64,000 bases of DNA from Candidatus Micrarchaeota archaeon (GCA_018812625.1 JAHJDH010000033.1:3622-67621); one strand, 5' to 3'; shown: positions 14,209-31,249, numbered from the stretch's first letter. The notes: generated by a model from the sequence alone, not told the origin. Translations and numbers: made by a program.

Positions 14209-14221
14209 AGAGGATTTTGAT

Positions 14222-14752
14222 ATGATAATTGCAATGGGTCTTCCTGGAGCTGGAAAAACTACGGTTTTGAAGAATGTTAAGTCTGACTATGTGCTTGTTA
14301 ATTATGGGGATCTTATGTTTGAGATCGAGCAAGAGCATTTTGGAATCAAAGATCGGGATGATATGAGAAAGCTTCCAATTGAAAAACAAAAACAAGCACA
14401 AAAAATGGTTTATGAAAGGCTTGCTAAGATGGATGGAAAAGTGATTCTTGATACTCACTGCTCAGTAAATACTCCATCAGGTTTTTTCCCAGGCCTTCCA
14501 CTTGATTACCTTAAGATGCTCAAAGTAGATTCACTTGTTCTTATTACTGCAGATGTTGAGGAAGTAGCAAAGAGAAGAGCAGAAGATCCTACTCGAAAAA
14601 GGGATTCTGATGACGTGGCACTTCATGATAATATGAATAGAGCATTTCTTGCTGCTTACAGTGCTGCAACTGGCGCTCCTGCTGTGATCATCTTTAACAG
14701 GCAAGGAAAACTGGAAGAAGCAGTTGCACAATTTGAAAAAATACTTGGATGA
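14222..14752 (+). CDS. adkA: adenylate kinase, archaeal type
   Basis: 176 aa with P-loop GLPGAGKTT and ..LDTHCSVNTPSGFFPGLP.. typical of archaeal AdkA. The location near secY is usual. Confidence 0.9.
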   Translation: MIIAMGLPGAGKTTVLKNVKSDYVLVNYGDLMFEIEQEHFGIKDRDDMRKLPIEKQKQAQKMVYERLAKMDGKVILDTHCSVNTPSGFFPGLPLDYLKMLKVDSLVLITADVEEVAKRRAEDPTRKRDSDDVALHDNMNRAFLAAYSAATGAPAVIIFNRQGKLEEAVAQFEKILG

Positions 14753-14756
14753 TTAT

Positions 14757-16028
14757 ATGCTAGACATTCGCTTAATCCGTGACAATATTGAAAAAGTCGA
14801 AGAATCACTGCGCATCAGGCATTATGAAGGCGATGCAACAGATGCACTAGCTCGAATCAAGGATCATGATCTATCATGGCGCAAAGTAAAAAAAGAAGAT
14901 GATGAGCTTAGAGCAGAGCGCAATAAGCTCGGCCCAGAGATTGCAAAAGCGAAAAAAGCAGGAGAACCTGCGGATGATCTACTCAAGCGATCAACAGAAA
15001 TCAGCAACAAAATAAAAAATCTGACTCTTGAAACAAATACTCTTGAAGAAAAGATCAAAGATGAACTACTTTATCTGCCAAACATTCCCGATGATTCGGT
15101 TCCACATGGGAAAACCGAGGCAGACAATCCCGAGATTCGAAAGTGGGGCGAGATCAAGAAAACATCAAAGGATGTTCTCTCTCATTTTGATTTGGGTCAG
15201 AAAACCGGTTTAATCGATCATGAGAGGGGAGTAAAACTTGCATGCCACAGGTTTTGCGTTTTATATGGAGATATTGCCAAACTTGAGCGCGCTCTTATCA
15301 ACTTCATGCTTTCTGTACAAACTTCCCGTGGCTATCTTGAAGTTGCGCCACCGTATATTGTAAATACAAAAACAATGACAGGAACAGGCCAGCTTCCAAA
15401 ATTTGCCAGTGACCTCTACAAATGTGATGAGGATCTCTGGCTTATTCCAACTGCCGAAGTTCCACTAACCAACCTTTATTCAGGCGAGGTTCTTGAAGAG
15501 AAAAATCTTCCGATCAAGCTCGCTGCATATACTCCATGCTTTAGAAAAGAAGCTGGGGCATATGGAAAAGATATCAAAGGTTTGATCCGTCAGCATCAGT
15601 TTGACAAAGTGGAGCTTGTTAAGTTTTCTCATCCAAATACAAGCTTCCAGGAACTCGAAGCTTTGACAAAAGATGCAGAGAGGATTCTTGAACTCCTTGA
15701 AATTCCATACAGGGTAATTGAATTATGCACTGGAGACCTTGGCTTTGGAGCTGCAAAAACATATGATATCGAAGCATGGATTCCGTCACAAGATCGTTAT
15801 AGGGAAATCTCATCATGTTCAAACTGCACTGATTTCCAGGCAAGACGCGCCAATATAAAATTCCGAACTGGAGATCATCTTGAATATGTCCACACATTAA
15901 ATGGAAGCGGACTTGCAGTTGGAAGGACTTTGATTGCACTTCTTGAAAATCATCAGGAAGATGGACAAATTCTAATTCCAAAAGTTCTTCAGGACTTTAT
16001 GGGCAAGGAACTTATTGATATTCGGTAA
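14757..16028 (+). CDS. serS: seryl-tRNA synthetase
   Basis: N-terminal coiled-coil arm, then class II motifs FRKEAGAYGKDIKGLIRQHQFDKVE and TLNGSGLAVGRTLIALLEN. The internal ATG at 14757 is preferred over the track start 14724, which overlaps adkA. Confidence 0.93.
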   Translation: MLDIRLIRDNIEKVEESLRIRHYEGDATDALARIKDHDLSWRKVKKEDDELRAERNKLGPEIAKAKKAGEPADDLLKRSTEISNKIKNLTLETNTLEEKIKDELLYLPNIPDDSVPHGKTEADNPEIRKWGEIKKTSKDVLSHFDLGQKTGLIDHERGVKLACHRFCVLYGDIAKLERALINFMLSVQTSRGYLEVAPPYIVNTKTMTGTGQLPKFASDLYKCDEDLWLIPTAEVPLTNLYSGEVLEEKNLPIKLAAYTPCFRKEAGAYGKDIKGLIRQHQFDKVELVKFSHPNTSFQELEALTKDAERILELLEIPYRVIELCTGDLGFGAAKTYDIEAWIPSQDRYREISSCSNCTDFQARRANIKFRTGDHLEYVHTLNGSGLAVGRTLIALLENHQEDGQILIPKVLQDFMGKELIDIR

Positions 16029-16033
16029 TCCAA

Positions 16034-16759
16034 ATGGAAAAAAAGAAGAAGTTCTATTGCAAAAGCAGCGATGGGAATATCACTTATACTACTGACGGTA
16101 ATTTTATTTATGCAGAAGTTGGAAGCGACAGTATGAAGCTTGGCCTTTTTGATGGTCACTACTACAAGCTTAAGATTTACAAAAAGGTTCCAATTCTTGA
16201 AGTTGATGGGGTGCGGATGCATCTTATCAAAGATTTTGACAGCCCTCTTGATTATTCAAGAGAAGTTGTCAAAGAACTAAATATTCCATCAAAAGGTGAA
16301 CATTCTATTCTTGATACATGTATGGGACTTGGATACACTGCAATTGCCGCTGCAAAAAAGAAATATGTCAAGTCAGTTATAACATGCGAAATTTCTGAAG
16401 CTGTAATCAACCTTGCGCAATGGAATCCTCTTGGAGAATTACTATTCAAGGATAAAAAAATAGTTATTATGCGCGGAAGCGCGGCAGAGCTGATAACAAC
16501 TTTTTCTGCATCTACTTTCTCATTTATCATCCATGATCCGCCCAGGTTTTCGCATGCGCCTGAGTTATATTCAACTGAATTTTACAAAGAACTATTCCGT
16601 GTTTGCAAAAAAGGCGCTCGGATTTTCCATTATGTAGGTTCTGTTGGCAAGAAAAAAGGCCGCAACATAGAAAAAGAGGTTGAAAAAAGACTTCTCGAGG
16701 TCGGGTTTAAATCTATTAAATATTCAAAAAGGCTCCAGGGGCTTTTTGCCAGTAAGTAG
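16034..16759 (+). CDS. putative class I SAM-dependent methyltransferase
   Basis: ILDTCMGLGYTAIAAA (motif I-like) and FIIHDPPRF (motif IV-like DPPx). The substrate is unknown. Confidence 0.6.
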   Translation: MEKKKKFYCKSSDGNITYTTDGNFIYAEVGSDSMKLGLFDGHYYKLKIYKKVPILEVDGVRMHLIKDFDSPLDYSREVVKELNIPSKGEHSILDTCMGLGYTAIAAAKKKYVKSVITCEISEAVINLAQWNPLGELLFKDKKIVIMRGSAAELITTFSASTFSFIIHDPPRFSHAPELYSTEFYKELFRVCKKGARIFHYVGSVGKKKGRNIEKEVEKRLLEVGFKSIKYSKRLQGLFASK

Positions 16760-16793
16760 TCTTTTATAATATTCCTCATACTAACACATTATT

Positions 16794-17207
16794 ATGAAAA
16801 GAAAAACTCGCGGCAGTCCAACTGGTAGCAAAATTCTAGATCATATATCTGGCAAGAAGCTAGGCCCAGATCATCTCCAGACCGAAGATTCTTCTGCAAT
16901 GCTAATCTTTGCTCTTGATAATGATAAATCTGATGTTCGCATCATGGCAGTAAGAGGCCTTAGTGTAATTGCTCTTGCTTCTTCAAATGATGCTGTTCTC
17001 TCAAAAAGGTTGCTTGATCTACTGGAATTCCATGCAGTTTCTTCTGAACATGAAGATGTTAGGAAAGAATGCATTGATGCTCTTGCGCTTATAGAAGGAC
17101 CAGGGAGAATAAGCAAACTTAGTTTTGAAATTGGTTGTTTTGCAACTAAATGTTATCGCGATAAAGTGCTTCTTGAATTAGAAAAAGAAAGAGAAATGCC
17201 TAATTGA
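16794..17207 (+). CDS. hypothetical HEAT-repeat-like protein
   Basis: Repeated helical units with ..SDVRIMAVRGLSVIA.. and ..HEDVRKECIDALALI.., resembling PBS-lyase HEAT repeats. Confidence 0.45.
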   Translation: MKRKTRGSPTGSKILDHISGKKLGPDHLQTEDSSAMLIFALDNDKSDVRIMAVRGLSVIALASSNDAVLSKRLLDLLEFHAVSSEHEDVRKECIDALALIEGPGRISKLSFEIGCFATKCYRDKVLLELEKEREMPN

Positions 17208-17208
17208 T

Positions 17209-18771
17209 TTATTTTTTAATTAGAATCTTATCTTGCGATTGTATCATTCCGCCATAAATACTGCCAACTGTTCCATATCCAGATTCCAGGTAAATATCTC
17301 CAGATTTCATGCTTTGGCCTATATTGTTTCCTGATGTTCCAAGCACATCAATATACCCGCCATTCATACCAAGACCAAGGAAATCGCCCGTATCTCCAGT
17401 AATTATTATGGAACCTCCTTGTTTCCATGCGCCAGTACCATAACCTGCAGAACCCTCAACAATCATAAGTCCATTATCCTGCATCTCACAACCAGTATGT
17501 GATCCAAGGTTTCCAAATACTCTGATAATTCCATCATTTCTATATCCGAGCAAACTGACTTTTTTGCCAAGGCCCGTAAAATCAAAAGTGTGGAACATGC
17601 TTTCTCCGCCATTTACTAGCGCGCTGAGAAATATTCCTGCCTTTCTGCCAAACATGTGATCATTTTGGAAACACTCAATTGCTTTGCTGAATCGAAGCAG
17701 GTCTCTTCCACTATATTCGAGTGCGGTTGCCATTCCCAATATTTCATCATAGCTTCTCTCAATGTCAAAATTATCAAATCTAAAGAGCATCCATGCATCT
17801 ATCAAGTCCTTTAGTGTTTCATCCTCGCCATTTTTTACAAATGGATAAAGCTGCCGGTCTCCAATAAATGTTTCACCGCCCTTGCCTGGTTTGCCAAGTG
17901 TGTTCTCGAGGTCTTCTCTTACAATTATCACTCCTCCAGATCTTCTTGGGCCTACATAGCTTCCTCCGTATCCAACAGTGATAACCCCTCCTTTCTGAAA
18001 CAGGCCAATCAGAGAGCCTCCAAATCCATCAACATGGATTGTGCCTCCTTTCATTCTGCCTCCAACAATCATGGAGACATCTCCAATCAAAATCTTTTGC
18101 TGTGGGGTGCCTTGATGGACTACGCATATATGTGCCAAGCTGCCAACGTTTCCAAAGATGCGGATCATTCCTCCTTCCATGTCTGCTCCAACATGCCCGA
18201 AAACATTTTCATTAATGTAAATTTCTCCCCCGCTCATCCCATCTCCGACATTGCCATGTACGCTGCCTTCAACAGTAATGGATCCATCTTCCATCAAACT
18301 TGCAAGTCCGTCACCAACATCTCCTATTACTCTGACATTTTTGACGTTCTTGTACCCTAGCAATGTTAATTTTTTATTGTAAAGCGTAGTATTAACAGTA
18401 TATCCATCATCCATTCCAGAATTAATCATTGCACTGATAATCAAACCTGCCTTGTAGCTGAAATTCTCGTCTCTTTGGAACTGTTTGATCTGTTGGCAAA
18501 AATTTTCAACATCATGAACTGAATAATTGCTGCCACTACACAATTCATTTGCCTTACCATAAATTTCTGATAGTTCTGAGGATTCTACTTTTTTCCAGAT
18601 TGTAGCTGCACTAAGTTTTGGGGATTTAACCTCTCTAATATGACTTACTAGTCTGATGCCCTCTTCTTCTGGCCTTTTTCCGTTAAGTGGTTTTTTTCCA
18701 TCAAAACCATTAACCTTAGGGATACCCTTCTCTACCTTCTTCGCAACTTGTTGTGTTTCCATGATCGCCAC
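17209..18771 (-). CDS. tandem GXGXG-motif protein (GltB domain 3 / FwdC-like beta-helix, duplicated)
   Basis: Two halves, each a helical module followed by glycine-ladder repeats. The repeats read VIGDVGDGLASLMEDGSITVEGSVHGNVGDGMSGGEI and VFGNLGSHTGCEMQDNGLMIVEGSAGYGTGAWKQGGSI. Confidence 0.7.
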   Translation of the reverse strand: MAIMETQQVAKKVEKGIPKVNGFDGKKPLNGKRPEEEGIRLVSHIREVKSPKLSAATIWKKVESSELSEIYGKANELCSGSNYSVHDVENFCQQIKQFQRDENFSYKAGLIISAMINSGMDDGYTVNTTLYNKKLTLLGYKNVKNVRVIGDVGDGLASLMEDGSITVEGSVHGNVGDGMSGGEIYINENVFGHVGADMEGGMIRIFGNVGSLAHICVVHQGTPQQKILIGDVSMIVGGRMKGGTIHVDGFGGSLIGLFQKGGVITVGYGGSYVGPRRSGGVIIVREDLENTLGKPGKGGETFIGDRQLYPFVKNGEDETLKDLIDAWMLFRFDNFDIERSYDEILGMATALEYSGRDLLRFSKAIECFQNDHMFGRKAGIFLSALVNGGESMFHTFDFTGLGKKVSLLGYRNDGIIRVFGNLGSHTGCEMQDNGLMIVEGSAGYGTGAWKQGGSIIITGDTGDFLGLGMNGGYIDVLGTSGNNIGQSMKSGDIYLESGYGTVGSIYGGMIQSQDKILIKK

Positions 18772-18875
18772 ATTTTACTTTATTAACCCACTTTTATCTA
18801 GATGTGTTTATAAAGGTAACCTAGTGTGCATGAAATCTAGGCCGTGGAAGAAAAAAGAAGAGAAAATTTAAAAAC

Positions 18876-21068
18876 TTAATCCATAAAGAAGGTTACATCC
18901 GGAGCGTCTGGTTTTTCGCCTTTCCTCTCTCTGATTTGTCTGATTATCTTCTCTGTAAGATCTCTTGGAACCTGATGGTATCCAGCATATTCCTGATACC
19001 AAATGGCTCTACCTTGTGTTGCTCCTCGAAGGTCATTTGCAAATCCAAACATCTCGGCAACTGGAAGAACTGTTGTAATAACTGCATTTTCTCCTTCCTG
19101 TTCCATTGCCTCAAGAACACCGCGTCTTCCGTTTGTCATGTTAATGACATCTCCAGAATATTCTCCAAGAGTGTTGATCAGAACTTTTTGCTTTGGCTCA
19201 AGTAGTGCAATTTCTGCCTGGATCATACATGCATAGATTGGTCTTCTGATTGTTGGAAGCATCTGTGCAGGGCCTCTGTGGATGTTGTCTTCATGCAAAG
19301 TAGCATCAACAAGCCTTACAAGAACTCCAGTGACCTTTTCCTTTGCCTTTGGTCCCTGGTTCATACATTCTCTGAACCCCTGAATCATAAGCTCCTCAAC
19401 TTCATTTAGGTACTGAATACCCTTGGTTGCATTGATGAACATATTTCCATGATAGATGTCGTAGACTTTTCTAGCCTCGTCACGCTCAAGGCCAAGTTCA
19501 ATGAGTTTTTCATAATCCTCTCTGACCTTTGGCTTTCCATCTGCAATCTCTCCCTTCTGAAGTGCTTCCAGTAGTTCTGGATTAATTGCCTCAACAGTAA
19601 CCTTGAGTCTGTTGTGCTTGTTTGGAGATTTTCCTTCAACCGGGCCTCCCTTTCCTTTGATTGTTTCAGAATAAAGGACAATCGGAGGTGATGTGATGAT
19701 TGGAATTTTCTTCTCCTTCTCGATCTTGTACTCAATAATCTCAAGATGAAGTTCTCCATTTCCGCTTACAAGGTGTTCTCCAGTATCCTGGTTGAGTGAA
19801 ACCTTGATTGTAGGGTCTTCCTTTGAAATGCTTCGAAGCGCTTCAATAAGCTTTGGAAGGTCTTTCTGTTCTTTTACTTCAATGGATTTTGTAATGACTG
19901 GCTCTGAATAGTGCTTGATTTGTTCAAATGGAGTAATTTGTCTAGAAGAAACAGTTTCTCCTACATATACATCCTTAAGGCCAACAAGCGCTCCAATGTT
20001 TCCAGCTCTAATTCTCTCTGCAGCAACTCTGTCCTGCCCCATGAAGATACCAACTTGCTGAACCTTTGCAGTTTTTTTAAGTGATGCAATATACAGCTCA
20101 GTTCCTTTTTGTATGGTTCCAGAAAAGATACGGGCAACAGCAACTTCTCCAGCATGTTCATCGTAAACAACCCCGAAAACAACAGCTACTGGGTTTCCTT
20201 CAGGGTCACAGGCAAGCATGCTTTTTCCTTCATCAGTTTCAAGATCTCCGCCTTTCCAAAGAACTGGAGTTCTGTATGCCTGAGCAACTTTGGGGCTTGG
20301 AAGATGTTTGATTACCATCTCAAGAAGAACATCGTCAAGAGGACTCTTTTCAACCAGGAATTTGTGGTCTTCTTCTCTGCATTTGTCATAAATGTCCTTG
20401 AACGAGATATTGAATCTTTTCATTGAAGTAATTGAAAGTGCCCATTTGTTGTATGCAGTACCAAATGCAACATTTCCTTTTTCTACGCCGATAAGCCAAT
20501 CATCTTTTTTATCTGCAGGTGCATTTGCCGAAATGATTTTGTTAACCTGCGTAATGATTTTTATAAATTTTTCCTGCATTGCAGCAGAATCAAGTTTCAA
20601 TTCATTGATAAGTCTGTCAACTTTGTTAATGAACAAAATTGGTTTTGCTCTTTCTTTAAGTGCCTGTCTAAGGTTTGTTTCTGTTTGTGGCATAACTCCT
20701 TCAACAGCATCAATAACAAGACAAACACCATCAACTGCTCTCATAGCTCGAACAACGTGGAAACCAAAGTCAACGTGTCCTGGAGTATCAATAAGGTTAA
20801 TCAAATAATCCTGGCCTTCAAATTTAAATCCAAGAGAAATGTTAGCTGATTTGATTGTAATTCCTCTGGCTGCTTCCTGCTCATCAAAATCCATAACTCT
20901 CTGAGCACCGGCAAGTTCTTTGCTGATAAGTCCTGCACGTGCAACAAGACTGTCTGTTAGGGTTGTTTTACCATGATCAACGTGGGCAACAATTGCAACA
21001 TTTCTGATGTTGACTGAATTTTCCATCAACTTCTGTACTTCTTCGACTACAACTTCCTTTCGTGCCAT
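18876..21068 (-). CDS. fusA: translation elongation factor aEF-2
   Basis: 730 aa with GTPase motifs AHVDHGKTT, DTPGHVDF and NKVDR, plus the diphthamide-region HEDNIHRGPAQ. Confidence 0.97.
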   Translation of the reverse strand: MARKEVVVEEVQKLMENSVNIRNVAIVAHVDHGKTTLTDSLVARAGLISKELAGAQRVMDFDEQEAARGITIKSANISLGFKFEGQDYLINLIDTPGHVDFGFHVVRAMRAVDGVCLVIDAVEGVMPQTETNLRQALKERAKPILFINKVDRLINELKLDSAAMQEKFIKIITQVNKIISANAPADKKDDWLIGVEKGNVAFGTAYNKWALSITSMKRFNISFKDIYDKCREEDHKFLVEKSPLDDVLLEMVIKHLPSPKVAQAYRTPVLWKGGDLETDEGKSMLACDPEGNPVAVVFGVVYDEHAGEVAVARIFSGTIQKGTELYIASLKKTAKVQQVGIFMGQDRVAAERIRAGNIGALVGLKDVYVGETVSSRQITPFEQIKHYSEPVITKSIEVKEQKDLPKLIEALRSISKEDPTIKVSLNQDTGEHLVSGNGELHLEIIEYKIEKEKKIPIITSPPIVLYSETIKGKGGPVEGKSPNKHNRLKVTVEAINPELLEALQKGEIADGKPKVREDYEKLIELGLERDEARKVYDIYHGNMFINATKGIQYLNEVEELMIQGFRECMNQGPKAKEKVTGVLVRLVDATLHEDNIHRGPAQMLPTIRRPIYACMIQAEIALLEPKQKVLINTLGEYSGDVINMTNGRRGVLEAMEQEGENAVITTVLPVAEMFGFANDLRGATQGRAIWYQEYAGYHQVPRDLTEKIIRQIRERKGEKPDAPDVTFFMD

Positions 21069-21361
21069 AAAATTTCACCGATTTTACCATTATGTATATA
21101 TTACAGTGTCTATCCGACAATTAGTTGTTGTAATGGTAGTAGGAAAAGAATATAAAACCTGCTTTTGGTCCCTATCTGCGTGGTATGACTTGTTGAAAAT
21201 CGATTTTTGTATTTTTCTGATTCGATTATTTGATTTTTATTGGCTTTATTGTGAATTTCACTATTTTTCTCTCTTTTTTTATCTTATTTTTTGTGATTTT
21301 TTGTCTCATATTGTGTTCTGAGCATCTGTTTAAAAATCTTTATTACAAGAAGTGTATATAT

Positions 21362-22705
21362 ATGAGCAGAAAGTTGAGGGTGGCAGTATATGATTTAGCC
21401 AGAGCGCCCATGGAAACGCTCACAAAAAGGCTGAATTTATCTGGGTTATCTGTGTTATCAGATGAACCTATGCGTTTAACTGCTCAAAGCGCCAGGCCAG
21501 ATGCGGATGTCTGGCTAAATAAGTGGTCATTCAATCTAAAAGCTCCTTTTCTTGAATGTCACAAACCCAAGCTTGGAATTTTGACTATGACTGTTGGCAC
21601 TGACCATATTGATATGGATGCAGTTTCAAAACACGGCCTTCAAATAGAGACCTGTCCATCTTATTGTTCAAATTCAGTTGCTGAGCATGCTATTGCACTG
21701 GCACTTCGCGGGTCCTATAAGGATTCTGCTCTTCCACAACTTTCGCCATCTCAATTATTATTTACTAATCTTTCAGATTCCTTAGTTGAAGCTGCAGTTG
21801 CACAAATTCTCTTTAGAATTCGCCAGCTTGATAAAAGCATTGAACGTGCAAAAGCGTATGATTATGGTCCCTCTGAAATTGGTAGATATGCTGCTCCCTG
21901 GTCTAATCAGGAGCTGCTTGATAAGAGAATAGGAATTGTTGGTACAAATGGTTCTGCAAAAAAACTTATCAAAATACTAAAATCTGGTTTTGGTTCTCAC
22001 GTTCTTCTTCATCATTCCGATATTGCGCTTGAGTCACTTGGAGCAGTTCCTTTCACATGCTATGAAATTGGCAAGTCTTGCGCTTATGTCTTTCTTAATG
22101 ATGAAAATATTCACTTTTCTGACCTGCTGAAAATCGATGCACGACGTTTAGAGCCTTCTTCATATGTACTATCAGGTTCAAAAGTAGCAGTTCTTGGAGC
22201 AGGAAAAATCGGCTCAAGAATTGCTGAAATTGCAAAGCTTGGCTTTGACTGTGATGTAACTGTATTTAGCAGAACTGAAAAGCCAGAACTTTCTGAAATC
22301 GGAATAAATTTTGCTGCCAAGCTGCAAACTGCAATTTCAGATGCTCAGTTTATTTTTGTCGCACTTCCACTTACTGCAGAAACAACCAATATCATCAATG
22401 CTTCTGTGATTGCAGGCTTAGATCCATCAATTCCAAGAGTAATGGTTAATGTTACTCGAGATAAAATCATTGACAGCGAAGCACTTTATTCTGCTATTGA
22501 GAGCGGAGTTATTTCTGTTTATGCAACTGATGTTCTTCCAAATGACACTTCACTTTGGGTTGGAAATGAACCTGATGAGATTACAAGCAGATTTGCAGTC
22601 CATCCAAGAGTAATTGCAACTCCTCATGAAGCTGACAGTTCTGTTGATTCAGCAGAGCGACTTGCTTCTGAAGTTATTGAAAAATTAAAGACGTTTAAAA
22701 TGTGA
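21362..22705 (+). CDS. D-isomer-specific 2-hydroxyacid dehydrogenase family protein (atypical, with a central insertion)
   Basis: GTDHIDMDAVSKHGLQIE..VAEHAIALAL, NAD-binding VAVLGAGKIGSRIAEIAKLGF, NVTRDKIID and catalytic-His region ATPHEA. The track start 21230 adds a T-rich hydrophobic leader that I regard as promoter read-through. Confidence 0.7.
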   Translation: MSRKLRVAVYDLARAPMETLTKRLNLSGLSVLSDEPMRLTAQSARPDADVWLNKWSFNLKAPFLECHKPKLGILTMTVGTDHIDMDAVSKHGLQIETCPSYCSNSVAEHAIALALRGSYKDSALPQLSPSQLLFTNLSDSLVEAAVAQILFRIRQLDKSIERAKAYDYGPSEIGRYAAPWSNQELLDKRIGIVGTNGSAKKLIKILKSGFGSHVLLHHSDIALESLGAVPFTCYEIGKSCAYVFLNDENIHFSDLLKIDARRLEPSSYVLSGSKVAVLGAGKIGSRIAEIAKLGFDCDVTVFSRTEKPELSEIGINFAAKLQTAISDAQFIFVALPLTAETTNIINASVIAGLDPSIPRVMVNVTRDKIIDSEALYSAIESGVISVYATDVLPNDTSLWVGNEPDEITSRFAVHPRVIATPHEADSSVDSAERLASEVIEKLKTFKM

Positions 22706-22710
22706 TATAT

Positions 22711-25491
22711 ATGGCAGAAAAATTAATCAAGCCTCAAAATGTTCCAAAGAAACCAGAGCGGGCAGCACCAAAAGTTTTCCATGCTGGTAGGTATAAAGAT
22801 CGCGGAGAAGACGCTGCACAAATGTCAATTACAAATATTGGCGGAACTGATGTTGATAAAGTAATAGCTCCATACAAAGGAGACTCATCCAGAAGAATTT
22901 TGTATGGCAACTGGGGAGATCCTGTTCGCTATGGCCTTGGTCCATATGAAGGTTTTTTCCGCCACAAGGGTCGTATATTCTCTCTTGAAAAAGATCCAAC
23001 AACATTTACTAGTTACTGTCTTTCTGGAGATACTGATTTGAAAGAAATCCTGGCAGCTGGTTGGAGGGGCTCACCAAATCCATTTGCAGTTGACAAAGTC
23101 CAGGTTTATATCACTCCAGGAGTTGCAGGAGCACTTAAGCTGATTTGCCAGTCATTCCTCTTGCCTCCATCCCAGCCAAATCTCTCTCCTGCTTTAGATC
23201 TTCTCAGATCTTCTCTTGAGGGCATTTCAAATGGTCCTTCTGATTCATCGCTAGTAATGCCTGCACTTTTATCTATTCAAAAGATCGTACAAACTGAATA
23301 TGATCGCTGTTCTGTACGCGATAATGTGGTTGTTCCTCTTTGGACATATGTTTCGCATATGGCAAGCGTTTATGGTGCGCAGGGCCGTGTTAATGTCTGC
23401 GATATCCAAGAGGATGGACAGGTCGATCTTGATAGTTTTGAGAAAAGCATTGATAGAAACACCCGCGCTGTAATTTTTGCAACTGTTGGAAACCCTCTTC
23501 CAGTTGCCATGCATCCAGAAAAATTTGATGAAATCCTTCGAATTGTTGATCGGAAGATGAACCAATATGGCCATCCAATTCTTGTTGTTGCAGATACTAT
23601 CTATGAGCATTTTAGAAATCAAAAAATGAATCGTATTGATCCGATCCAAAGAGCAATGGTGCTTCAGAGACGTGAGGATGTGTTTGTTCCAATAATCGAT
23701 ATGTGCAGTTTCTCCAAAATGCTCGCTATGCCAGGTCAGCGTGTTGGATATGCAAGAATCCGCTGGGAAGATCGGCTTTTTCCGGAAGAGAGGCATGACT
23801 TTTTCCTTTTGATGAATGCGATCGAAGGAATTGCTCTTGGTACTGTGCCAATGGATACTCAAAGAGCTCTTGCTAAACTTTACACTTCAATCAATTTGCA
23901 CAGTCCTGTTGAGGAGGAGCTTGCACCTATTGCAACTGTGCTAAAAGTTCTTCAGGATTTGCCTTCTTCATCTCATGAACATACTGATGGCTATTATTCT
24001 GTAAAGAGAGTTACCAAAATGGTTGAAGATTTAGCAGTTAATACTCTCTCTGCTTACAAATTTGCAGTAACCAGGGGAAATATCCAAGAAATAGCAGAAC
24101 GTCTTGAAAAAGCAGGCATAATCGACATGCGATATATTGAGGACAGTTCTGGAAAATCAGTTCCTCATTTCAAACTAAGTATAGAATCTCTTCCAAAAAT
24201 TCCACAATCATCATCAGGAAAAATAGAGCTTGCTGATATTTCAAATGATCTTGCCTGGAGGGAGTTTGCAGAAATTACATATCCAGGCTTGATTGAGCGG
24301 GAAGACCTTCGCTACGATGCACACAAAGCCTTTATGCGAAGAGAATCATCCTCAAGAACAGTCGCATTTGCAGAAGGTGTTCTGTCCTTGCAGTCCATGG
24401 GCCGTCCAGTACACCTGCATCCAGCTTTGCTAGATGGCTCTCAACTTAACAGGGATAATCTCAGTGCATTCTATGTCCTGTTTAGTTTTGATCATTATCA
24501 GAGCTATCATGGTCCGGACTTCCCATCACAAGCAGCGCAAATTGCAAGCGAATGTATCAAATATAAGTTTCCGATTCCATATTGGGTTCCAGCAGAATTA
24601 TTCATTCCGCCAGACCTTAGAAGCGATGAGACTTCATATATACGAAACGTATCATTGCAAGGGTCAGATGAGATGGCAGAAATGCTTAATGTCATGGATC
24701 GACTGACCAGGCTTCCGACAAAAGGAATCCGTTCTGATCGTCTTCGTCAAATCAATGAACCTTCAAGGAAACTGCTCGAATCAATTTCCCCAGAAGTTCC
24801 AGCTATAATCTCCAGACTTTCAGATGCTTTGACTTATGAAGGAACTAGGCAGTCAGAGGCATTATCTCATGCTAAGGAAGAGCTGAGCGTATTATTTGGC
24901 CAGATACAGGAGGATTCTCTTAAAAGTCCAATTTCATCAGAAGTATCGCAGATGAGGGATTTGCTCTCTGCTGCTATCTCTAATCTTGAGCTTGCTGATG
25001 ATCTTTCAAATGCATCTGAGACCAGGGAAACAGTTGGTTCTGCAATAAGCACTTTGGAGAAAATTGCAGTATTTGAACCTAAACCAGATTCTGCTCCAGG
25101 CAAAATTGAGGAACATAACCGGGTTTTGATTATGGACGATTCTGTGGATGTAAGCACTGTGATGGGGAAGATATTCACAAAACTCGGATTGCGTGTTACT
25201 AAGGTTGCAAATGGTGAAGATGCAATTATTGCAGTCCAAGATGCAATAGCCAAGGGCAACCCTATAAGTACTATATTCCTTGATTTGAATATTCCAGATG
25301 AGCATATGGGAGGTAAGCAGGCTGCTCTGGAAATCCGGGCAATTGATCCGAATGTTCGGATATTTGCAGTTAGCGGCGAATCTGACCACGAGGTTATGAA
25401 GAATCCGACTGATCATGGGTTTACCGGCGCTCTTGGAAAACCATTTGTATATTCTGATGCACAGAAAGTTTTGGAACCAGATAAAAAATAA
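22711..25491 (+). CDS. fusion protein: class I/II PLP aminotransferase-like domain, long helical linker and C-terminal response-regulator receiver (REC) domain
   Basis: PLP-lysine motif CSFSKMLAMPGQRVGY. The C-terminus reads VLIMDDS..TIFLDLNIPDEHMGG..FAVSG..GALGKPF, which carries all the REC hallmark positions (DD, phospho-acceptor D, S/T, K). Confidence 0.75.
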   Translation: MAEKLIKPQNVPKKPERAAPKVFHAGRYKDRGEDAAQMSITNIGGTDVDKVIAPYKGDSSRRILYGNWGDPVRYGLGPYEGFFRHKGRIFSLEKDPTTFTSYCLSGDTDLKEILAAGWRGSPNPFAVDKVQVYITPGVAGALKLICQSFLLPPSQPNLSPALDLLRSSLEGISNGPSDSSLVMPALLSIQKIVQTEYDRCSVRDNVVVPLWTYVSHMASVYGAQGRVNVCDIQEDGQVDLDSFEKSIDRNTRAVIFATVGNPLPVAMHPEKFDEILRIVDRKMNQYGHPILVVADTIYEHFRNQKMNRIDPIQRAMVLQRREDVFVPIIDMCSFSKMLAMPGQRVGYARIRWEDRLFPEERHDFFLLMNAIEGIALGTVPMDTQRALAKLYTSINLHSPVEEELAPIATVLKVLQDLPSSSHEHTDGYYSVKRVTKMVEDLAVNTLSAYKFAVTRGNIQEIAERLEKAGIIDMRYIEDSSGKSVPHFKLSIESLPKIPQSSSGKIELADISNDLAWREFAEITYPGLIEREDLRYDAHKAFMRRESSSRTVAFAEGVLSLQSMGRPVHLHPALLDGSQLNRDNLSAFYVLFSFDHYQSYHGPDFPSQAAQIASECIKYKFPIPYWVPAELFIPPDLRSDETSYIRNVSLQGSDEMAEMLNVMDRLTRLPTKGIRSDRLRQINEPSRKLLESISPEVPAIISRLSDALTYEGTRQSEALSHAKEELSVLFGQIQEDSLKSPISSEVSQMRDLLSAAISNLELADDLSNASETRETVGSAISTLEKIAVFEPKPDSAPGKIEEHNRVLIMDDSVDVSTVMGKIFTKLGLRVTKVANGEDAIIAVQDAIAKGNPISTIFLDLNIPDEHMGGKQAALEIRAIDPNVRIFAVSGESDHEVMKNPTDHGFTGALGKPFVYSDAQKVLEPDKK

Positions 25492-25651
25492 GGTCCTCGC
25501 AATTGTTTTTCAATAGTGTTTTCCAAAAATGAAAAGGTTTTAGCTTGGAAAACGCTGGGCCCAAATACCGAATCGGTTTAAGGGCGACCACTCTCATGGT
25601 CCCGAAGGACAATAGTTGAGAATAACCATTTTGAACATGTTTGCGAGGATC
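25492..25651 (+). ncRNA. candidate structured non-coding RNA (~160 nt), family unknown
   Basis: Closing helix GGTCCTCGCAA (25492-25502) / TTGCGAGGATC (25641-25651). Inner helix 25516-25526 / 25545-25555. Each helix has one position that is a G-U wobble on the + strand but an A-C mismatch on the - strand. It lies between convergent genes. Confidence 0.4.
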
Positions 25652-25686
25652 AGGTAGCTAATTGCAACAATCATTTATTTACTTTT

Positions 25687-27084
25687 CTATGCTGCGCTAA
25701 AAGCTTCCTTGATCAGTTCATTCATTTTTTCAGGCGGATCAGTCTTGACATGTATAATAAAACTGAGGATATTTCCAACTGTGATATTGTCTGCATTGTT
25801 GAATATGTTCAGCGCATCCTCCAGTGGCATTGTCAATGTGAAATCTGCATCTGAGTATGATCCTTCTTTTACATTTACTATGTAGCCATCATCAAGCTTT
25901 GCCTTTAGTTTTATGTTCTCATCCCCTTCGATCCTAAGGTTTACCTTATCATATTTTTTCATTACTTTAACAAAAATCGGGTTGCTGTTGAAGAAAGAAA
26001 CAACTGCTTCTGCATTTATTCCATATTCAAGTCCAACATCTGTTTCAACAATTCTCTCTTCCTCTGGTATTTCTTCTGCCTCTTCAACTTTTACTATATC
26101 GGGGGCAATAGAATATTCTTTTGCGCATTCCGGAGAATCCAGTATGTATTCAAGTATCTCTGCATTGTCCTTGAAATATCCATCTTCGCATATTGTTATC
26201 ATACTGTATGACTGGAAATTGCAGTAAGTAATCTTTGATTCTATATGAAGTGTAAAGTTTTCATTATGCATCTGGTATGATATTTTCTTCTTGCTGGAGC
26301 TTTTCGAATCAAGCTCCAGGCTGTCATTTTCCTCTATGTACTTTTCTGTCCAGTCGTAAAGGGTTTCAGATGGTGCATTATACTTATTCAGCAGAACTGT
26401 GCATGCACCTTGACTTAGACTAATTATTGTTTCATTTTCTGCTTTGCCCTGGTTCCATTCCGGTATTTTGGCTGAATAATCCTCATCAATGAATGTGCCG
26501 TATTTTGTATCATCCAGATTCGGCATGCCGGGCTTTGCACTGTAGTCTGGCTCAGCATATTCTCTTGCGCATGCTACACTTGAAGTAAAATGTTCAAGAT
26601 CTTCTTCATATTCGTTCCAGTAGTCCTTTGCGCATGTTGCCAGAACTACATATGTTTTGTGATTGCAATAATGCATGCTTGTTACTGCCTTGAAAGTTAT
26701 ATTGTCAAAATCTGCAGCAAATCCCATTGAGTGCTTATCAATATCAACTTCATCCAAGCTCACATTTTCGTTTGCTGCTGTTGCATTTACTATCCAGTTG
26801 AAAAGCGGGGTTATTGGGGCATCATGCCGATCTACATTCAGGACACATAATGCATTTCCAATTGCAAGGATACTGGTATTCGTCTGATCTCTTGATTCCC
26901 ACTCCGGATATTCAAGAGAAAAATCATCATCAGTAAATTTTGAGAATTCTGTTTCATTGACTTCTGGCGTCGGTTCTTCTAATTTCTGCTCTTCTTCTGT
27001 TACTTTCTGCTCTACAGTCTGATTAGTACAGCCAAAGAGAATACTAAATACTAGTAATACTGCCAATATCCTTGAAATTTCCAT
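25687..27084 (-). CDS. hypothetical secreted lipoprotein with an internal domain duplication
   Basis: Signal peptide plus lipobox (..LVFSILFGC). Two homologous modules share PEW.., C.VL.N...AP....W and ..YCN..Y....C....CA.EY. Confidence 0.7.
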   Translation of the reverse strand: MEISRILAVLLVFSILFGCTNQTVEQKVTEEEQKLEEPTPEVNETEFSKFTDDDFSLEYPEWESRDQTNTSILAIGNALCVLNVDRHDAPITPLFNWIVNATAANENVSLDEVDIDKHSMGFAADFDNITFKAVTSMHYCNHKTYVVLATCAKDYWNEYEEDLEHFTSSVACAREYAEPDYSAKPGMPNLDDTKYGTFIDEDYSAKIPEWNQGKAENETIISLSQGACTVLLNKYNAPSETLYDWTEKYIEENDSLELDSKSSSKKKISYQMHNENFTLHIESKITYCNFQSYSMITICEDGYFKDNAEILEYILDSPECAKEYSIAPDIVKVEEAEEIPEEERIVETDVGLEYGINAEAVVSFFNSNPIFVKVMKKYDKVNLRIEGDENIKLKAKLDDGYIVNVKEGSYSDADFTLTMPLEDALNIFNNADNITVGNILSFIIHVKTDPPEKMNELIKEAFSAA

Positions 27085-27131
27085 AATTAGAATTCGAAAG
27101 AAATAATTAAATGAATATATAAAAAATAAAA

Positions 27132-27746
27132 TTATCTTGCGCTTCTAGCCATACGCTCTGTTTCGTCACGTTTTTTGATAGAGTAACTGGTTTGAACGTC
27201 TCCCTTTGCAGTTGAGATGATTTCGCTAGCAAGAGACTGTGCAAGTGATTTTGGCTTGTTGAATGCCCCCATAAGAGCAGAAAGTGAAATGTTTCTAAGT
27301 GCCATGTCAAGTCTTCTTGTTGCTGAAACATCTACTGCAATCTGGTAGCTAACTCCACCATGTGAAACACGTGTTACGTCCTCTCTTGGAGCTGAATTTT
27401 CAAGAGCTCTGATAAGAACCTGAATCGGATTCTCCTTGGTCTCTTTTTCAACTATGCCAAATGCCTCGTCAACTATTCGAAGTGATTTGAGCTTTTTCCC
27501 CTGCATTCTTCCCTTTGTTCGGATGACTTTTCCTGATGTTTTTTCACCAGTTCCTCCTCTCATCAGTTTGTTTGCAAGTCTCTCAACAATATTGACTTCC
27601 ATCTTACCAAGATTTTTTCTTGCATTTCTTCCAAAAGTGTGTGGAACTGCAATTGGTTTGAGGGAAATAGTTTGAGCAAGACTCAAATCTTTTATCTCAA
27701 GCTTTTCAAGTGAATATTTGCCAAATAGTTTGTCCATTAAAATCAT
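27132..27746 (-). CDS. rps7: ribosomal protein uS7
   Basis: 204 aa with ..[45 protein letters not shown]... Confidence 0.95.
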
Positions 27747-28180
27747 CTCTTAGGCTTTTCTTTCCTGCCCTTTCGAAGCATTTGAAGATCTGCTCCATTT
27801 ACAGCAACGACCTTGTACCTAACTCCTGGCATAGATCCCATCTGACCTCGTTGAGATCCTCCAAGACCTGCCAAAGTGACCTGGTCGTGCTCATCAATGT
27901 AAGTAATTGCCTTGTTTCTAGGTGCATGTGCACTGACAACTTTTCCATTTTTTAGAAGCTGGACCTTTACACATTTGATAAGTCCAGAGTGAGGCTGTTT
28001 CTGCTCGAGAACAATTTTTTCAAGTACAATCGCATCTGCTTGCGGAGCACCTTCTAGTGGATCATGCTTTTCTTTAAGCCTGAGTGTTCTTCGTTTCCAT
28101 TTCTTAGAGAGCCAGCGCTGACCTTTTCGGCGCCTTTTCATATTTCTTCCGGCGAATTCGCCATTTCCTCCTTTTCCCAT
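27743..28180 (-). CDS. rps12: ribosomal protein uS12
   Basis: 145 aa with ..[52 protein letters not shown]... Confidence 0.95.
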
Positions 28181-28268
28181 TAATACACCTAGTAATAAAA
28201 CTCAAATATGAGTAGAGACTATTGTAGTACTGAGAAGGTTTTATAAAGTTTATGACAGGGGTTCATTT

Positions 28269-29144
28269 ATGGTTTCCAAGTTTCTCTATTCGTTTTCGCT
28301 ATCGGATATGGCTCCGATTATTGAAATGCAACGTCTTGCGGCAAGCCAGATGGCAATTACTGCATTCAATGACAGAAGCACCATGCATGAGACTCTGATG
28401 AAACTGCAGGATGGCGCTCGGCAGGCATCTGTTATGGCCCAGGCTGAAACAGCATCAGTCTCATCTGATCTTCATAAGAATGCCGAAAACCAGTCAATTC
28501 GAACTTATAGCCTTACCTATTACAATCCAGAAACACAGGAAACAGAAGTCATCCAGGAACATGCAGATATACATGTTAAGGATTATGCCAAGGCAATGAT
28601 TGAAGAGTCTATGGGATCTGCCTCAGCAATTCCACTGTATCAATATATAGGAAGTCCAATTGTCCGGGAAGAAATAGTTCCATGGAAGCTTGAGAAGATT
28701 CTCTCTGAGCGTGAATATGGAACTCCTCCTTCTGCAGGAGGCGGGGCAGCAGTTGTTCCAATGCGCGTTATTATTCAAAAAACAGCTGAGCGCAAAATAG
28801 CAAAAGCCAGGGATGAAGAGATCAAGGCAGCAGTTGCCGAGGCAATTTTGAGAAAGGAATCCAGCGAATTAAAGATTGTCGAGGAGATCCTTCTTCTTGA
28901 AGATGCCATTGAAGCTCTTCGCAATGGCGAGGATATTGACAAAATTCTTGAAAAGCTGCCTGCACTTTCCCGAGCAAGGTATCTTATTGCACTAAAGAAA
29001 AAGCATTTTACAAGAAGACAAATAATCAATATGCTTCTTCGCGATGCTCTTTTCTTAAAGAAAATAAAGAAAAAACTAGAGTTATTTACCTTAGATGATC
29101 TTCTTGATATGGTAAAAATCTTAAGAAAAATGACTACTTCTTAG
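28269..29144 (+). CDS. hypothetical protein
   Basis: 291-aa ORF with coding-like composition and a TTTTATAAAG TATA-like box about 25 nt upstream of the ATG, suggesting a leaderless transcript. No motif recognised. Confidence 0.55.
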   Translation: MVSKFLYSFSLSDMAPIIEMQRLAASQMAITAFNDRSTMHETLMKLQDGARQASVMAQAETASVSSDLHKNAENQSIRTYSLTYYNPETQETEVIQEHADIHVKDYAKAMIEESMGSASAIPLYQYIGSPIVREEIVPWKLEKILSEREYGTPPSAGGGAAVVPMRVIIQKTAERKIAKARDEEIKAAVAEAILRKESSELKIVEEILLLEDAIEALRNGEDIDKILEKLPALSRARYLIALKKKHFTRRQIINMLLRDALFLKKIKKKLELFTLDDLLDMVKILRKMTTS

Positions 29145-29286
29145 ACCGAATTTCCTTTCTCTTTGGTCTGAGGTATTTTGAACCACAGCTTCGGCACTGT
29201 TTTACGCTTTTCTTATTCCTTGTTTTGCACCTGAGGCAAATCTGTGTTTGAGCAATTTCTAAATCAGCTTCTGGAAACTTTCCCAT
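29134..29286 (-). CDS. rpl40e: ribosomal protein eL40 (50 aa zinc ribbon, below the ORF-track cut-off)
   Basis: Hand translation of the minus strand gives MGKFPEADLEIAQTQICLRCKTRNKKSVKQCRSCGSKYLRPKRKEIRSKK*. It has CxxC..CxxC and the L40e-like PEA..ICxRC..C.KCG...LRPK pattern. Confidence 0.8.
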   Translation of the reverse strand: MGKFPEADLEIAQTQICLRCKTRNKKSVKQCRSCGSKYLRPKRKEIRSKK

Positions 29287-29373
29287 TGTGTACACCTAAT
29301 TAGTAGGTTGATAATTGTTATATATTGTTTTTAAACTTGCCCATTGCCATTAATTATTAGTTTTGGTGCAAAA

Positions 29374-29979
29374 ATGGAAGTAATTATACGAGGTTATCTC
29401 CCAGAAGATGGGGCTGGAATTGTCCGCATTTACAAAAATGCCCTTGAAACTTTGAGGAAAAGCAAGGGTGGAGATCATGATGATTATTCCATAGACAAAA
29501 TTCTTAGTGGATCAGATAAAAAGATATTATCTGATCTTTTTTGCAGAAATGATATTGTTCTTGTTGCTGATGCAGAGGGTATTCCAGTTGGCTTTACAAG
29601 CTTTTCAAATCGTTTGATTGACAAAATTCTCAAGAGTACTTATGGTTCCAATATCTATGTTGCCAAAGAGTTTCAAAGAGGGAAAATCGGAGTCAATGTC
29701 GGCAGAATGCTAGTTAGTGAAAGAAAGAGACTAATGAGTAAAATGAACTATCGGAAGTACTACTCATACTCAACTCCTGAATCTGTTGCATTTGGAAAGA
29801 AATGCGGAGTTAAATACTATCCAGCACACAATACATATTCATTGAACAGTTCCTTGGCACTGCACTATTATGAGTTTATATTGCGTCCAAGTTTTCTCAA
29901 TAAGATAAGAATTGAGCCTTATCTCTTTGAGCTTAGCATTTTGTTTGGGAAAGCACTTGGCAAACTTAAAGGAAGATGA
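29374..29979 (+). CDS. GNAT-family N-acetyltransferase
   Basis: Motif A-like YVAKEFQRGKIGVNVGRMLV. The ATG at 29374 follows GGTG; the track start 29344 is a TTG. Confidence 0.65.
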   Translation: MEVIIRGYLPEDGAGIVRIYKNALETLRKSKGGDHDDYSIDKILSGSDKKILSDLFCRNDIVLVADAEGIPVGFTSFSNRLIDKILKSTYGSNIYVAKEFQRGKIGVNVGRMLVSERKRLMSKMNYRKYYSYSTPESVAFGKKCGVKYYPAHNTYSLNSSLALHYYEFILRPSFLNKIRIEPYLFELSILFGKALGKLKGR

Positions 29980-29980
29980 C

Positions 29981-31249
29981 ATGAATCCTCTTGAAGTACT
30001 CTGGCAGTTTTTTATTCTTCGATCTGAACAGTGGAAAACTCCGGATGAGCTTGAGGTGATTCAGGCAAAAAAACTCAATCAAATCCTATTATCTGCATCC
30101 AAAACAGAATTTTACAAAAATCTGCTTTCTGGCGTTTCCCTAGATAATTTCCATGGGCTTCCCTTGACCTCCAAAGAAGATATTCAAAAAAATCCCAAAT
30201 CATTTCTCAATCCTGAAATTCCAATTGCAGCATGTACCAAAACCTCAGGCTCAACTGGAACTCCGATGAGTATATCCCTGGATAATGCCTCTGTAGTTCA
30301 TGCCATTGCAATGCGCGCTCTATCTACAACTGAATTTGGTTTTGGCCCTCTTGATAAATTTGCAATTTTTGGAGTTGACAGAAAGCCTGCTCCAATTTAT
30401 CGTTCTTTTCTCGGAACTTATCAGCCTCTTTTCTTCTCAATTTTTGATGATCCATCAAAGAACTACGAATATCTTCAAAAATCAAAAGCCAACATAATCG
30501 GCTGGTATCCTTCGACAATAACAAGCCTTGCCAGAATCAATGCCGAGTCTGAGAATCCGATCAAGCTCAAGGCAGCATTCTGCGGTGGCGAGCCTTTGAC
30601 TAATGCTGCCCGTAAATTCATCTCTGATTCATTTTCCTGCGAAGTGTTTGATCACTATGGACTTGCTGAATTTTCAACAGTGGCCTTTGAATGCCCGAAG
30701 CATAATCTTCATGTCAATACAAGTTTGCTGGTTGAAATTGCAGATCAAAATGGAAAACCAATCCAAAGCGGTGTTGGGCAAGTCGTGATCACTTCTCTTC
30801 ATAACAAGGCAATGCCTCTTCTTCGCTATGCAACAGGTGATTTTGCCAGCTTTGGAACTTGTTCCTGTGGCAGAGGCTCCAAAGTACTGAAATCTGTTCA
30901 TGGCAGAAAGGATGATCTGATTGTTCTTCCAAGCGGCAGGGTCTGCTCTGCTCTTAACATCAACAGGATGGATGATCTTACATATCTCCTTGAATTCAAA
31001 ATAATTCAGGAAAAGGAGGACCTCTTTGTCTTTCATTATGTTCCAAATGGTGAAGATATTTCTGCTTCCCAGAAAAAAGAAATCACTGATCTGATACAAA
31101 AAGGATGTTTGGGCGAAACAGTCTCTGTAGAATTTGAAAAATATATTTCTCTCAAAAAAGACAAATCCGGCAAACTGAGTACAGTTGTTTCCAAGATCGT
31201 TCCAAAGGAAAATGTTGAGTATAAAATATGGAATTCTGATGATCATTAG
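29981..31249 (+). CDS. PaaK/coenzyme-F390-synthetase-like adenylate-forming ligase, paralogue 1
   Basis: Phosphate loop TSGSTGTPM, CSCGRGS motif, and C-terminal DKSGKLSTV (ANL catalytic lysine region). It is closest to the copy at 52755-54014. Confidence 0.8.
   Translation: MNPLEVLWQFFILRSEQWKTPDELEVIQAKKLNQILLSASKTEFYKNLLSGVSLDNFHGLPLTSKEDIQKNPKSFLNPEIPIAACTKTSGSTGTPMSISLDNASVVHAIAMRALSTTEFGFGPLDKFAIFGVDRKPAPIYRSFLGTYQPLFFSIFDDPSKNYEYLQKSKANIIGWYPSTITSLARINAESENPIKLKAAFCGGEPLTNAARKFISDSFSCEVFDHYGLAEFSTVAFECPKHNLHVNTSLLVEIADQNGKPIQSGVGQVVITSLHNKAMPLLRYATGDFASFGTCSCGRGSKVLKSVHGRKDDLIVLPSGRVCSALNINRMDDLTYLLEFKIIQEKEDLFVFHYVPNGEDISASQKKEITDLIQKGCLGETVSVEFEKYISLKKDKSGKLSTVVSKIVPKENVEYKIWNSDDH

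Follow-up and report, generated by a model that had tools for sequence, protein, structure and literature searches.

Why should a metabolic enzyme end in a receiver domain, and what would such an enzyme be doing in an archaeon of the DPANN group? The question is raised by a 64,000-nucleotide stretch of DNA from Candidatus Micrarchaeota archaeon (GCA_018812625.1 JAHJDH010000033.1:3622-67621; the whole stretch is called the window below), in which a pyridoxal 5'-phosphate (PLP) aminotransferase fused to a C-terminal receiver (AT-REC, with AT and REC standing for its two parts) is encoded directly behind a 2-hydroxyacid dehydrogenase (DH). We would put at roughly one half the probability that AT-REC is a transaminase under phosphorylation control that acts together with the co-transcribed DH, and we infer catalysis, phosphotransfer and the effect of phosphorylation. 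The evidence for the fusion and for its parts is given first, followed by what is known of the partner enzyme and by the other explanations that the locus allows.

An aminotransferase fused to a receiver

Both open reading frames lie where the initial annotation had placed them, in tight succession, with 5 nt separating the DH stop at 22705 from the AT-REC start at 22711; if AT-REC began instead at a GTG at 22702, it would overlap the stop codon of DH. That the long frame arose by an error of assembly or gene calling, joining two genes into one, is a possibility we regard as negligible, because the same fused protein has been assembled in three genomes. The frame is uninterrupted, and the fusion was recovered repeatedly, in assemblies of three different sequences: the identical 926-aa protein is present in one NCBI and two Logan assemblies of one strain (DNA 100% identical), a 927-aa homologue of the same architecture and 80% identity is present in JGI, ENA and NCBI assemblies (at least four other assemblies), and a divergent 987-aa AT-REC, the L025 allele discussed below, is present in two further assemblies, one an ENA/NCBI genome and the other an independent Logan assembly. 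Selection across the junction also speaks against an artefact. In a comparison of the window with the 80% homologue, for which dS is ~1 and the ratios are rough, dN/dS was 0.06-0.09 for the AT core, 0.13 for the domain inserted in it, 0.19 for the linker that precedes the receiver and 0.15 for REC, with 0.16 for DH and 0.04 for EF-2. Every part of AT-REC, the linker junction included, is under purifying selection.

The aminotransferase core with its SFSK lysine, as first described, is well supported. The lysine is K336 (nucleotides 23716-23718), and Aminotran_1_2 (PF00155) scores 57.5 bits against a cut-off of 19.7 (E 1.7e-15), over residues 203-348 only. A full-length AlphaFold2 model (22-sequence alignment, mean predicted local distance difference test, pLDDT, of 80) gave a class-I aminotransferase fold followed by a (beta-alpha)5 receiver. 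In a Foldseek search, this model aligned over ~640 columns to class-I aminotransferases of 380-420 aa, with target template-modelling (TM) scores of 0.7-0.82; the matches include Pyrococcus AlaAT (1xi9), Thermus AspAT (1bjw), TyrAT, KAT and prephenate aminotransferase. Across 22 family members there is no variation at N261, D295, Y298, S333/S335, K336, R344 or R645, and the alignment to PDB 3ele spans the GNP, ADxxY and SxSK...R motifs. To judge from its motif and its position in the model, R645, in a SYIRxV strand, is presumably the carboxylate-binding arginine, equivalent to R386 of AspAT. Because this C-terminal arginine is invariant, and because the Foldseek alignment runs over ~640 columns, the predicted class-I (fold type I) fold is taken to extend from residue ~20 as far as residue ~665, with a break at ~396-530 where another domain is inserted.

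This arrangement replaces the helical middle region of ~350 aa that had been proposed at first. The aminotransferase fold continues to ~665, the insert at 396-530 is a putative winged helix, and helices alone are predicted only for residues ~666-800. The added length of the protein consists of N-terminal additions, the ~135-aa insert and, in the REC-bearing proteins only, the linker. In its fold and its PLP-binding residues AT is like the class-I (I-beta/gamma) aminotransferases, but it differs from them in an identity of just 10-14%, in the winged-helix insert before the interdomain helix and in the extra N-terminal segments. None of the NCBIfam equivalogs reached its cut-off on AT, the best score being 62.6 against 376.

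The receiver had been called complete on the strength of the motifs MDDS, FLDLN, AVSG and GKPF. All four are present, and the domain has profile support: Response_reg (PF00072) scores 48.0 bits over residues 805-915 (cut-off 30.2, E 1.6e-12). Sequence matches in the PDB were to Spo0F, CheY and the SLN1 receiver, and the AlphaFold2 model predicts a (beta-alpha)5 fold with strands at 804-808, 828-832, 854-858, 883-887 and 906-908. The five active-site residues, D809/D810, the phospho-acceptor D858 (nucleotides 25282-25284), S888 and K910, are all present, and these five and the cis-proline after the lysine are kept in all three REC-bearing proteins, although the identity of these proteins in REC is just ~30%. 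The receiver of the window protein is, like that of the L025 allele, of the kind seen on hybrid histidine kinases.

The linker between AT and REC, modelled as three long helices, has no match in Pfam. The short motif Q[MV]RDxLSAAxSN is the only one common to the linkers of the window protein and the L025 allele, and the similarity of the two is borderline (E 8e-4, with 7 of 500 shuffles scoring as high). We considered the linker as an HPt or DHp domain, and rejected both, given the lack of a Pfam match and the fact that the sole histidine of the window helix (SHAKEE) is not kept in the 80% homologue.

The inserted domain lies between the AT large domain and the long interdomain helix. It was modelled separately with AlphaFold2 (pLDDT 86), and its best 50 fold matches in the PDB have E-values of 5e-3 to 5e-2, with a target TM of ~0.5 for the matches to small proteins. 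They include PadR/LmrR, the winged helix of Orc1/Cdc6, TFE-alpha, the BLM RQC domain and an archaeal Lrs14-like regulator, as well as ROK repressor chains and a plant O-methyltransferase. With one AlphaFold2 model and modest Foldseek E-values behind it, the winged-helix assignment is consistent but not strong. Pfam gave only sub-threshold winged helix-turn-helix (wHTH) matches on the insert (PaaX, TrmB), and a profile search of PDB sequences with the insert returned nothing credible. In the family, the insert ranges in size from ~135 aa up to ~250 aa. An extra helical insertion of ~90-100 aa was seen in the wing region, at AT residues ~470-570, in one clade of the long ATs (L020-L025 and P0011/P0012/P0014).

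Table 1. Coordinates in the window of the dehydrogenase, the aminotransferase-receiver and associated features
Feature	Position	Strand	Basis
TATA-like box TTTAAAAAT	21329..21337	+	Read from sequence; ~29 nt 5' of DH ATG
Conserved AT-rich element, consensus ATTRTAAnAAATGTATRTATATG	21340..21364	+	Alignment of related loci; from TATA box into DH ATG
D-isomer-specific 2-hydroxyacid dehydrogenase (DH), 447 aa	21362..22705	+	Pfam 2-Hacid_dh_C and 2-Hacid_dh
DH insert, residues ~120-262 (~140 aa)	21719..22147	+	5' of true dinucleotide-binding motif
Degenerate half-Rossmann copy, DH residues 182-248	21905-22105	+	hhalign
Segment replaced in L025/G002	22677..25478		blastn and boundary alignments
AT-REC fusion protein, 926 aa	22711..25491	+	Pfam Aminotran_1_2 and Response_reg
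AT fold, first part, residues ~20-395, PLP site	22768..23895	+	Invariant residues, PDB 3ele alignment, fold matches
Putative inserted winged-helix domain, residues ~396-530 (~135 aa)	23896..24300	+	AlphaFold2 model and fold search
AT fold, second part, residues ~531-665: long interdomain helix and small domain, R645	24301..24705	+	Conservation, model
Helical linker, residues ~666-800 (~135 aa), three long helices	24706..25110	+	Model; REC-bearing proteins only
REC domain, residues ~801-922	25111..25476	+	Pfam, PDB sequence matches, model

The dehydrogenase and the spread of the pair

The partner enzyme is assigned by two Pfam models, both above their curated cut-offs: 2-Hacid_dh_C (PF02826; 124.5 bits, E 3.8e-36) and 2-Hacid_dh (PF00389; 41.9 bits, E 1e-10). 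Its close matches are proteins of 443-471 aa, at E 1e-86 or better, and the next matches are ordinary enzymes of 300-340 aa at ~E 1e-19. DH belongs to a discrete subfamily specific to the Micrarchaeota, set apart from ordinary members by this large gap in score. The glycines of the GAGKIG (GxGxxG) motif (G279/G281/G284), R366, D395 and H422 are invariant among the aligned relatives. The residues after beta-B read N/S-R-S/T, with no acid, which hints at the use of NADP(H). NCBIfam equivalogs all fell far under their cut-offs, with the models for phosphoglycerate dehydrogenase (PGDH), glyoxylate reductase and D-lactate dehydrogenase (D-LDH) tied at ~90-96 bits.

An insertion in this enzyme, with a second, degenerate Rossmann-like GxGxxG, had been noticed in the initial annotation, and the alignments confirm it. 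Residues 182-248, within the insert, align to the NAD-binding half-Rossmann at 267-336 with an hhalign probability of 97.7% (E 2.3e-12); the insert reads GIVGTNGSA where GxGxxG would be expected, with a family consensus of GIIGxDRSA, and is kept in all 10 aligned relatives. The insert holds a partial tandem duplicate of the NAD-binding Rossmann fold, of which it repeats the first half, and the glycine motif of the copy has decayed. DH is like SerA, GhrA/B, LdhA/D-LDH and PdxB in its catalytic and NAD-binding domains, its GxGxxG and its Arg/His, but unlike them in the ~140-aa half-Rossmann insert and, to judge from the motif, in having an Asp at the position that pairs with the catalytic histidine.

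The coupling of the two genes is conserved, as had been supposed from their spacing. A DH gene is directly 5' of a long AT gene, on the same strand, in L025 and in 11 of the 12 related loci from Micrarchaeota; contig ends cut two of these, and L018 is without DH. All of the related loci come from metagenome-assembled genomes of Micrarchaeota, and in most of those where the contig reaches far enough, the pair is found on the opposite strand between the genes for EF-2 and S7/S12. DH and the long AT form a lineage-specific operon of one Micrarchaeota family. The long AT has a patchy presence even in its GTDB genus, where ~10 of 25 genomes have it, and none was found in 16 genomes of other families of the same order. 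In two members of the genus, the long-AT matches (G006:C113:598-2592 and G023:C8:18772-20721) have one in-frame stop each (TAG and TAA, respectively); these could be pseudogenes or sequencing errors.

A search of 1.84 billion 50%-cluster representatives gave 41 matches at E < 1e-30, including ~17 full-length long ATs as well as members of a shorter sister family of aminotransferases (435-560 aa). Only two of the 41 representatives are longer than 850 aa, and both are AT-REC. In a collection of 5.8 billion protein clusters, just three (P0001, P0002 and P0163) have the fusion of an aminotransferase to a receiver. The host genome (an assembly of 1.27 Mb, ~85% complete) also has an aminotransferase paralogue of the sister family, at C14:50659. 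As for hints of function from the sister family, we found only generic, sub-threshold matches to AlaAT, TyrAT and PRK06836.

What the pair may do, and what else it might be

On the reading that we prefer, DH and AT would interconvert a 2-hydroxy acid, a 2-oxo acid and the matching amino acid. In the clade of the three sampled genomes, AT would have gained the ~135-aa helical linker and the C-terminal REC. A kinase encoded elsewhere in the genome would phosphorylate D858, and this would alter the activity or the assembly of the obligately dimeric transaminase. The direction of the pathway is left free by this proposal, as a redox sink running from an amino acid to a 2-hydroxy acid is as compatible with the pair as a biosynthetic route. 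The matching lineage-specific inserts of DH and AT may mark a physical complex of the two enzymes. We also considered charge complementarity between the DH insert and a basic helix in the AT insert as a sign of such a complex, and set it aside, as there is only a weak trend (r = -0.40, n = 10, with lineages that are not independent).

There is no histidine kinase in the window, in agreement with the first description of the locus. The only HATPase_c-like match there is a 569-aa protein at 42263-44029 (C15:45884-47650), which we rejected as a histidine kinase, as the match scores 22 bits, below the cut-off, and is accompanied by no HisKA match. A search of the genome for orphan histidine kinases found two candidates: a hybrid kinase of 1087 aa with the architecture PAS/GAF-HisKA-HATPase-REC (C7:32154-35432), and a small kinase of 250 aa with an H-box (C13:44189-44947). 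The remaining HATPase matches in the genome are GyrB and TopoVI-B. The REC of the hybrid kinase is 35% identical to that of AT-REC, with a common C-terminal pattern, M..P...GF.G.L.KP. The other two AT-REC genomes have orthologues of the hybrid kinase with 86-88% identity, but the three genomes are close relatives, so the co-occurrence is not independent evidence. The genome also encodes four REC-only proteins. Two of them, of 147 aa, come from tandem genes on C42 (C42:97-1004), a third, of 162 aa, is encoded divergently beside the TopoVI-B gene on C14 (C14:24824-27060), and the fourth is on C43.

Several observations weigh against a phospho-regulated transaminase acting with DH, and should be stated together. 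No kinase is linked to the AT-REC locus, most orthologues of the long AT lack a REC, and no split REC gene was found within ~6 kb beside the non-fused orthologues. Because most orthologues are without REC, control by phosphorylation would be a late addition to an older enzyme pair; because there is neither a linked kinase nor a REC gene near the non-fused orthologues, the choice of signalling partner is a guess. The RECs of the two alleles are 30% identical while the hybrid kinase is 88% conserved, which is awkward for the idea of one kinase recognising both. In DH, the acid that pairs with the catalytic histidine is an invariant Asp (D395, assigned by motif at the DVxPxD position), where D-2-hydroxyacid dehydrogenases usually have a Glu. 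The role of a winged-helix insert in an enzyme is unexplained. Finally, the MocR/GabR sensors also keep the PLP residues, and thus conservation of these residues in AT is no proof of catalysis.

A different idea is that AT-REC, like the other long ATs of Micrarchaeota with a winged helix, is not, or not only, an enzyme, but a PLP-dependent sensor-regulator, a convergent archaeal counterpart of MocR/GabR in which the winged helix binds DNA or RNA. The AT fold would then bind PLP and an amino-acid ligand, REC would make the protein a true response regulator, and the target would perhaps be the conserved element at the start of the operon. We consider this unlikely, although several observations speak for it. 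All of the best 50 fold matches of the insert contain a winged-helix domain, many of them from DNA-binding proteins; a strongly basic helix (AKRTRKLAN, net charge +4 to +8) is found in the insert of most family members; and the operon has, between its TATA box and its ATG, a conserved AT-rich element that is unique in the genome. Precedents exist for both halves of the arrangement, as archaeal DNA-binding response regulators typically combine an N-terminal wHTH with a C-terminal REC (FilR1, LtrR; PMC5847659), and MocR combines a wHTH and an aminotransferase fold and acts as a transcription factor (PMC4944035, PMC5320631). In the window protein, however, the basic helix is degenerate (+1), the L017/L018 clade has an acidic one (-5/-6), and the helix at the recognition position is neutral to acidic in most of the family. 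GntR of Pfam gave no match in AT-REC at E <= 0.1, nor in the insert at E <= 10, and none of the other HTH families of Pfam matched AT-REC at E <= 0.1. Winged helices often serve protein contacts rather than DNA, and a plant O-methyltransferase is among the fold matches. The AT gene is moreover placed 5 nt 3' of its metabolic partner, in an arrangement conserved in the family, and all of its catalytic residues are invariant, including the presumed carboxylate-binding arginine. Were the sensor to exist nevertheless, its REC-tagged forms would be a new class of response regulator, joining a metabolite (PLP) signal and a phosphorylation signal.

Two further proposals leave AT as an enzyme. The receiver might not be a phospho-switch at all, but a constitutive dimerisation or docking module, akin to a pseudo-receiver, or else a phosphate sink for the hybrid kinase, which we find about as doubtful as the sensor. 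The lack of an adjacent cognate kinase is in keeping with this, as is the identity of just 30% between the RECs of the two alleles, and the REC is of the hybrid-kinase receiver type, the members of which often serve in phosphorelays. Yet the five catalytic residues and the cis-proline after the lysine are retained in three of three proteins, the domain is under purifying selection (dN/dS 0.15), and pseudo-receivers usually lose some of their active-site residues, according to a preprint (bioRxiv 10.1101/2025.06.23.661182). A more definite metabolic assignment, to a biosynthetic module of the SerA/SerC type for serine (or of the PdxB/SerC type), goes back to the comparison made in the initial annotation, and seems improbable as anything other than an analogy. 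The chemistry of a 2-hydroxyacid dehydrogenase followed by a transaminase does fit, and PGDH is nominally the top NCBIfam model for DH, but this model (TIGR01327) reaches 96.3 bits where 454 are required, a score statistically level with those of the models for glyoxylate reductase and D-lactate dehydrogenase. SerC is a class-V aminotransferase, whereas AT is of class I, with Aminotran_5 (PF00266) scoring 12.7 bits against a cut-off of 21.5. Elsewhere, the genome has a canonical 2-hydroxyacid dehydrogenase of 297 aa, a class-V aminotransferase of 359 aa and SHMT, any serine module would have to be reconciled with the patchy presence of the pair within its genus (a long AT in ~10 of 25 genomes), and the redox-sink role described above would suit the same two enzymes equally well.

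How does the phospho-regulated transaminase that we favour compare with known systems? Fusions of REC to enzymes, each with a narrow phyletic spread, have been described in archaea, namely KaiC-REC, glycosyltransferase-REC, thioredoxin-reductase-REC and PPDK-REC (Galperin et al. 2018, PMC5847659). Like these and like CheB, AT-REC has an intact receiver on a standard enzyme, a spread at the level of the genus and, presumably, direct control by phosphorylation. Unlike the archaeal fusions, its output is a class-I PLP aminotransferase, its REC comes last in the chain, after a helical linker of ~135 aa, and its host is a member of the DPANN group. The word aminotransferase is absent from that archaeal census (PMC5847659), and we found no aminotransferase output in the literature searched, so an aminotransferase as a receiver-controlled output appears to be undescribed there. 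The early remark that a C-terminal REC on an enzyme is uncommon stands in so far as the fusion is genuine and very rare; the C-terminal position itself is less odd in archaea, where HTH regulators commonly have a C-terminal REC (FilR1, LtrR; PMC5847659). With FilR1 and LtrR, AT-REC shares a winged helix upstream and a REC at the C-terminus, which is a likeness in domain order; those proteins are dedicated DNA-binding regulators without an enzyme fold. With MocR/GabR (PMC4944035, PMC5320631) it shares the presence of a winged helix and an aminotransferase fold in one chain, but those are bacterial proteins with an N-terminal wHTH of the GntR type, while AT-REC is archaeal and co-operonic with DH, and has its winged helix inside the aminotransferase fold with no GntR signature. 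Neither AT with its inserted winged helix nor DH with its duplicated half-Rossmann seems to belong to a subfamily described before, and the two travel together. A receiver placed on a metabolic enzyme would mean that the cell bypasses transcription and switches the enzyme directly. The signalling repertoire of this DPANN host is very small, with two kinases and a few receivers, and its wiring should therefore be tractable.

A gene replacement in a close relative, and the ends of the operon

In a close relative of the host (L025/G002), the AT-REC gene has been exchanged for a different one. By blastn, window positions 13351-22677 and 25478-30516 match this relative at ~92% DNA identity, but between 22677 and 25478 only 185 nt match L025, at 68%. 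The swap spans 22677-25478 of the window against 9304-12288 of L025. One break point lies within the final ~10 codons of DH, and the other coincides with the stop codon of AT-REC. The protein encoded by the replacing gene, the 987-aa AT-REC, is 33% identical to the window protein in the aminotransferase and 24-30% in the C-terminal part and REC. A maximum-likelihood tree of AT cores pairs the window type with the REC-less P0168 as sisters (support 99/99) and places the L025 type inside a different clade, of 14 members, made up of REC-less proteins with a longer insert (100/100). The L025 allele comes, on this tree, from another clade of the family.

As for a single origin of REC in both alleles, the REC tree is a star and the similarity of the linkers is borderline. 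Two independent fusions, one old fusion followed by many losses, or transfer of the C-terminal module may each account for the receivers of the two alleles. That receivers are present on two aminotransferase backbones suggests that selection for phospho-control of this step has recurred or persisted. The exchange itself, between genomes that are 92% identical, gives a clean illustration from nature of the allelic replacement of a single gene in an uncultured symbiont.

The pair is flanked by genes for the archaeal EF-2, S7 and S12. At the start of the operon, the TATA-like box (TTTAAAAAT) is found at the same distance from the DH start in 10 divergent loci, and we infer that it is the promoter. 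Because the box is only ~29 nt before the DH start codon, the spacing would imply a leaderless mRNA or one with a very short leader. The AT-rich element that follows has a core, TGTAT[AG]TATATG, with a single occurrence in the 1.27-Mb genome, at the operon start. Both the box and the element are kept at equivalent positions in L013-L024, although the DH proteins of these loci have an identity of just 40-47%. The element may act as initiator or operator, or be a 5' element, of a leaderless operon; an Rfam scan of 20500-27500 found no RNA family. At the other end, 3' of the AT-REC stop codon and between convergent genes, positions 25492-25560 are near-identical in the window and in L025. A bidirectional terminator is probably formed there by the inverted repeat GTTTTCCAA...TTGGAAAAC.

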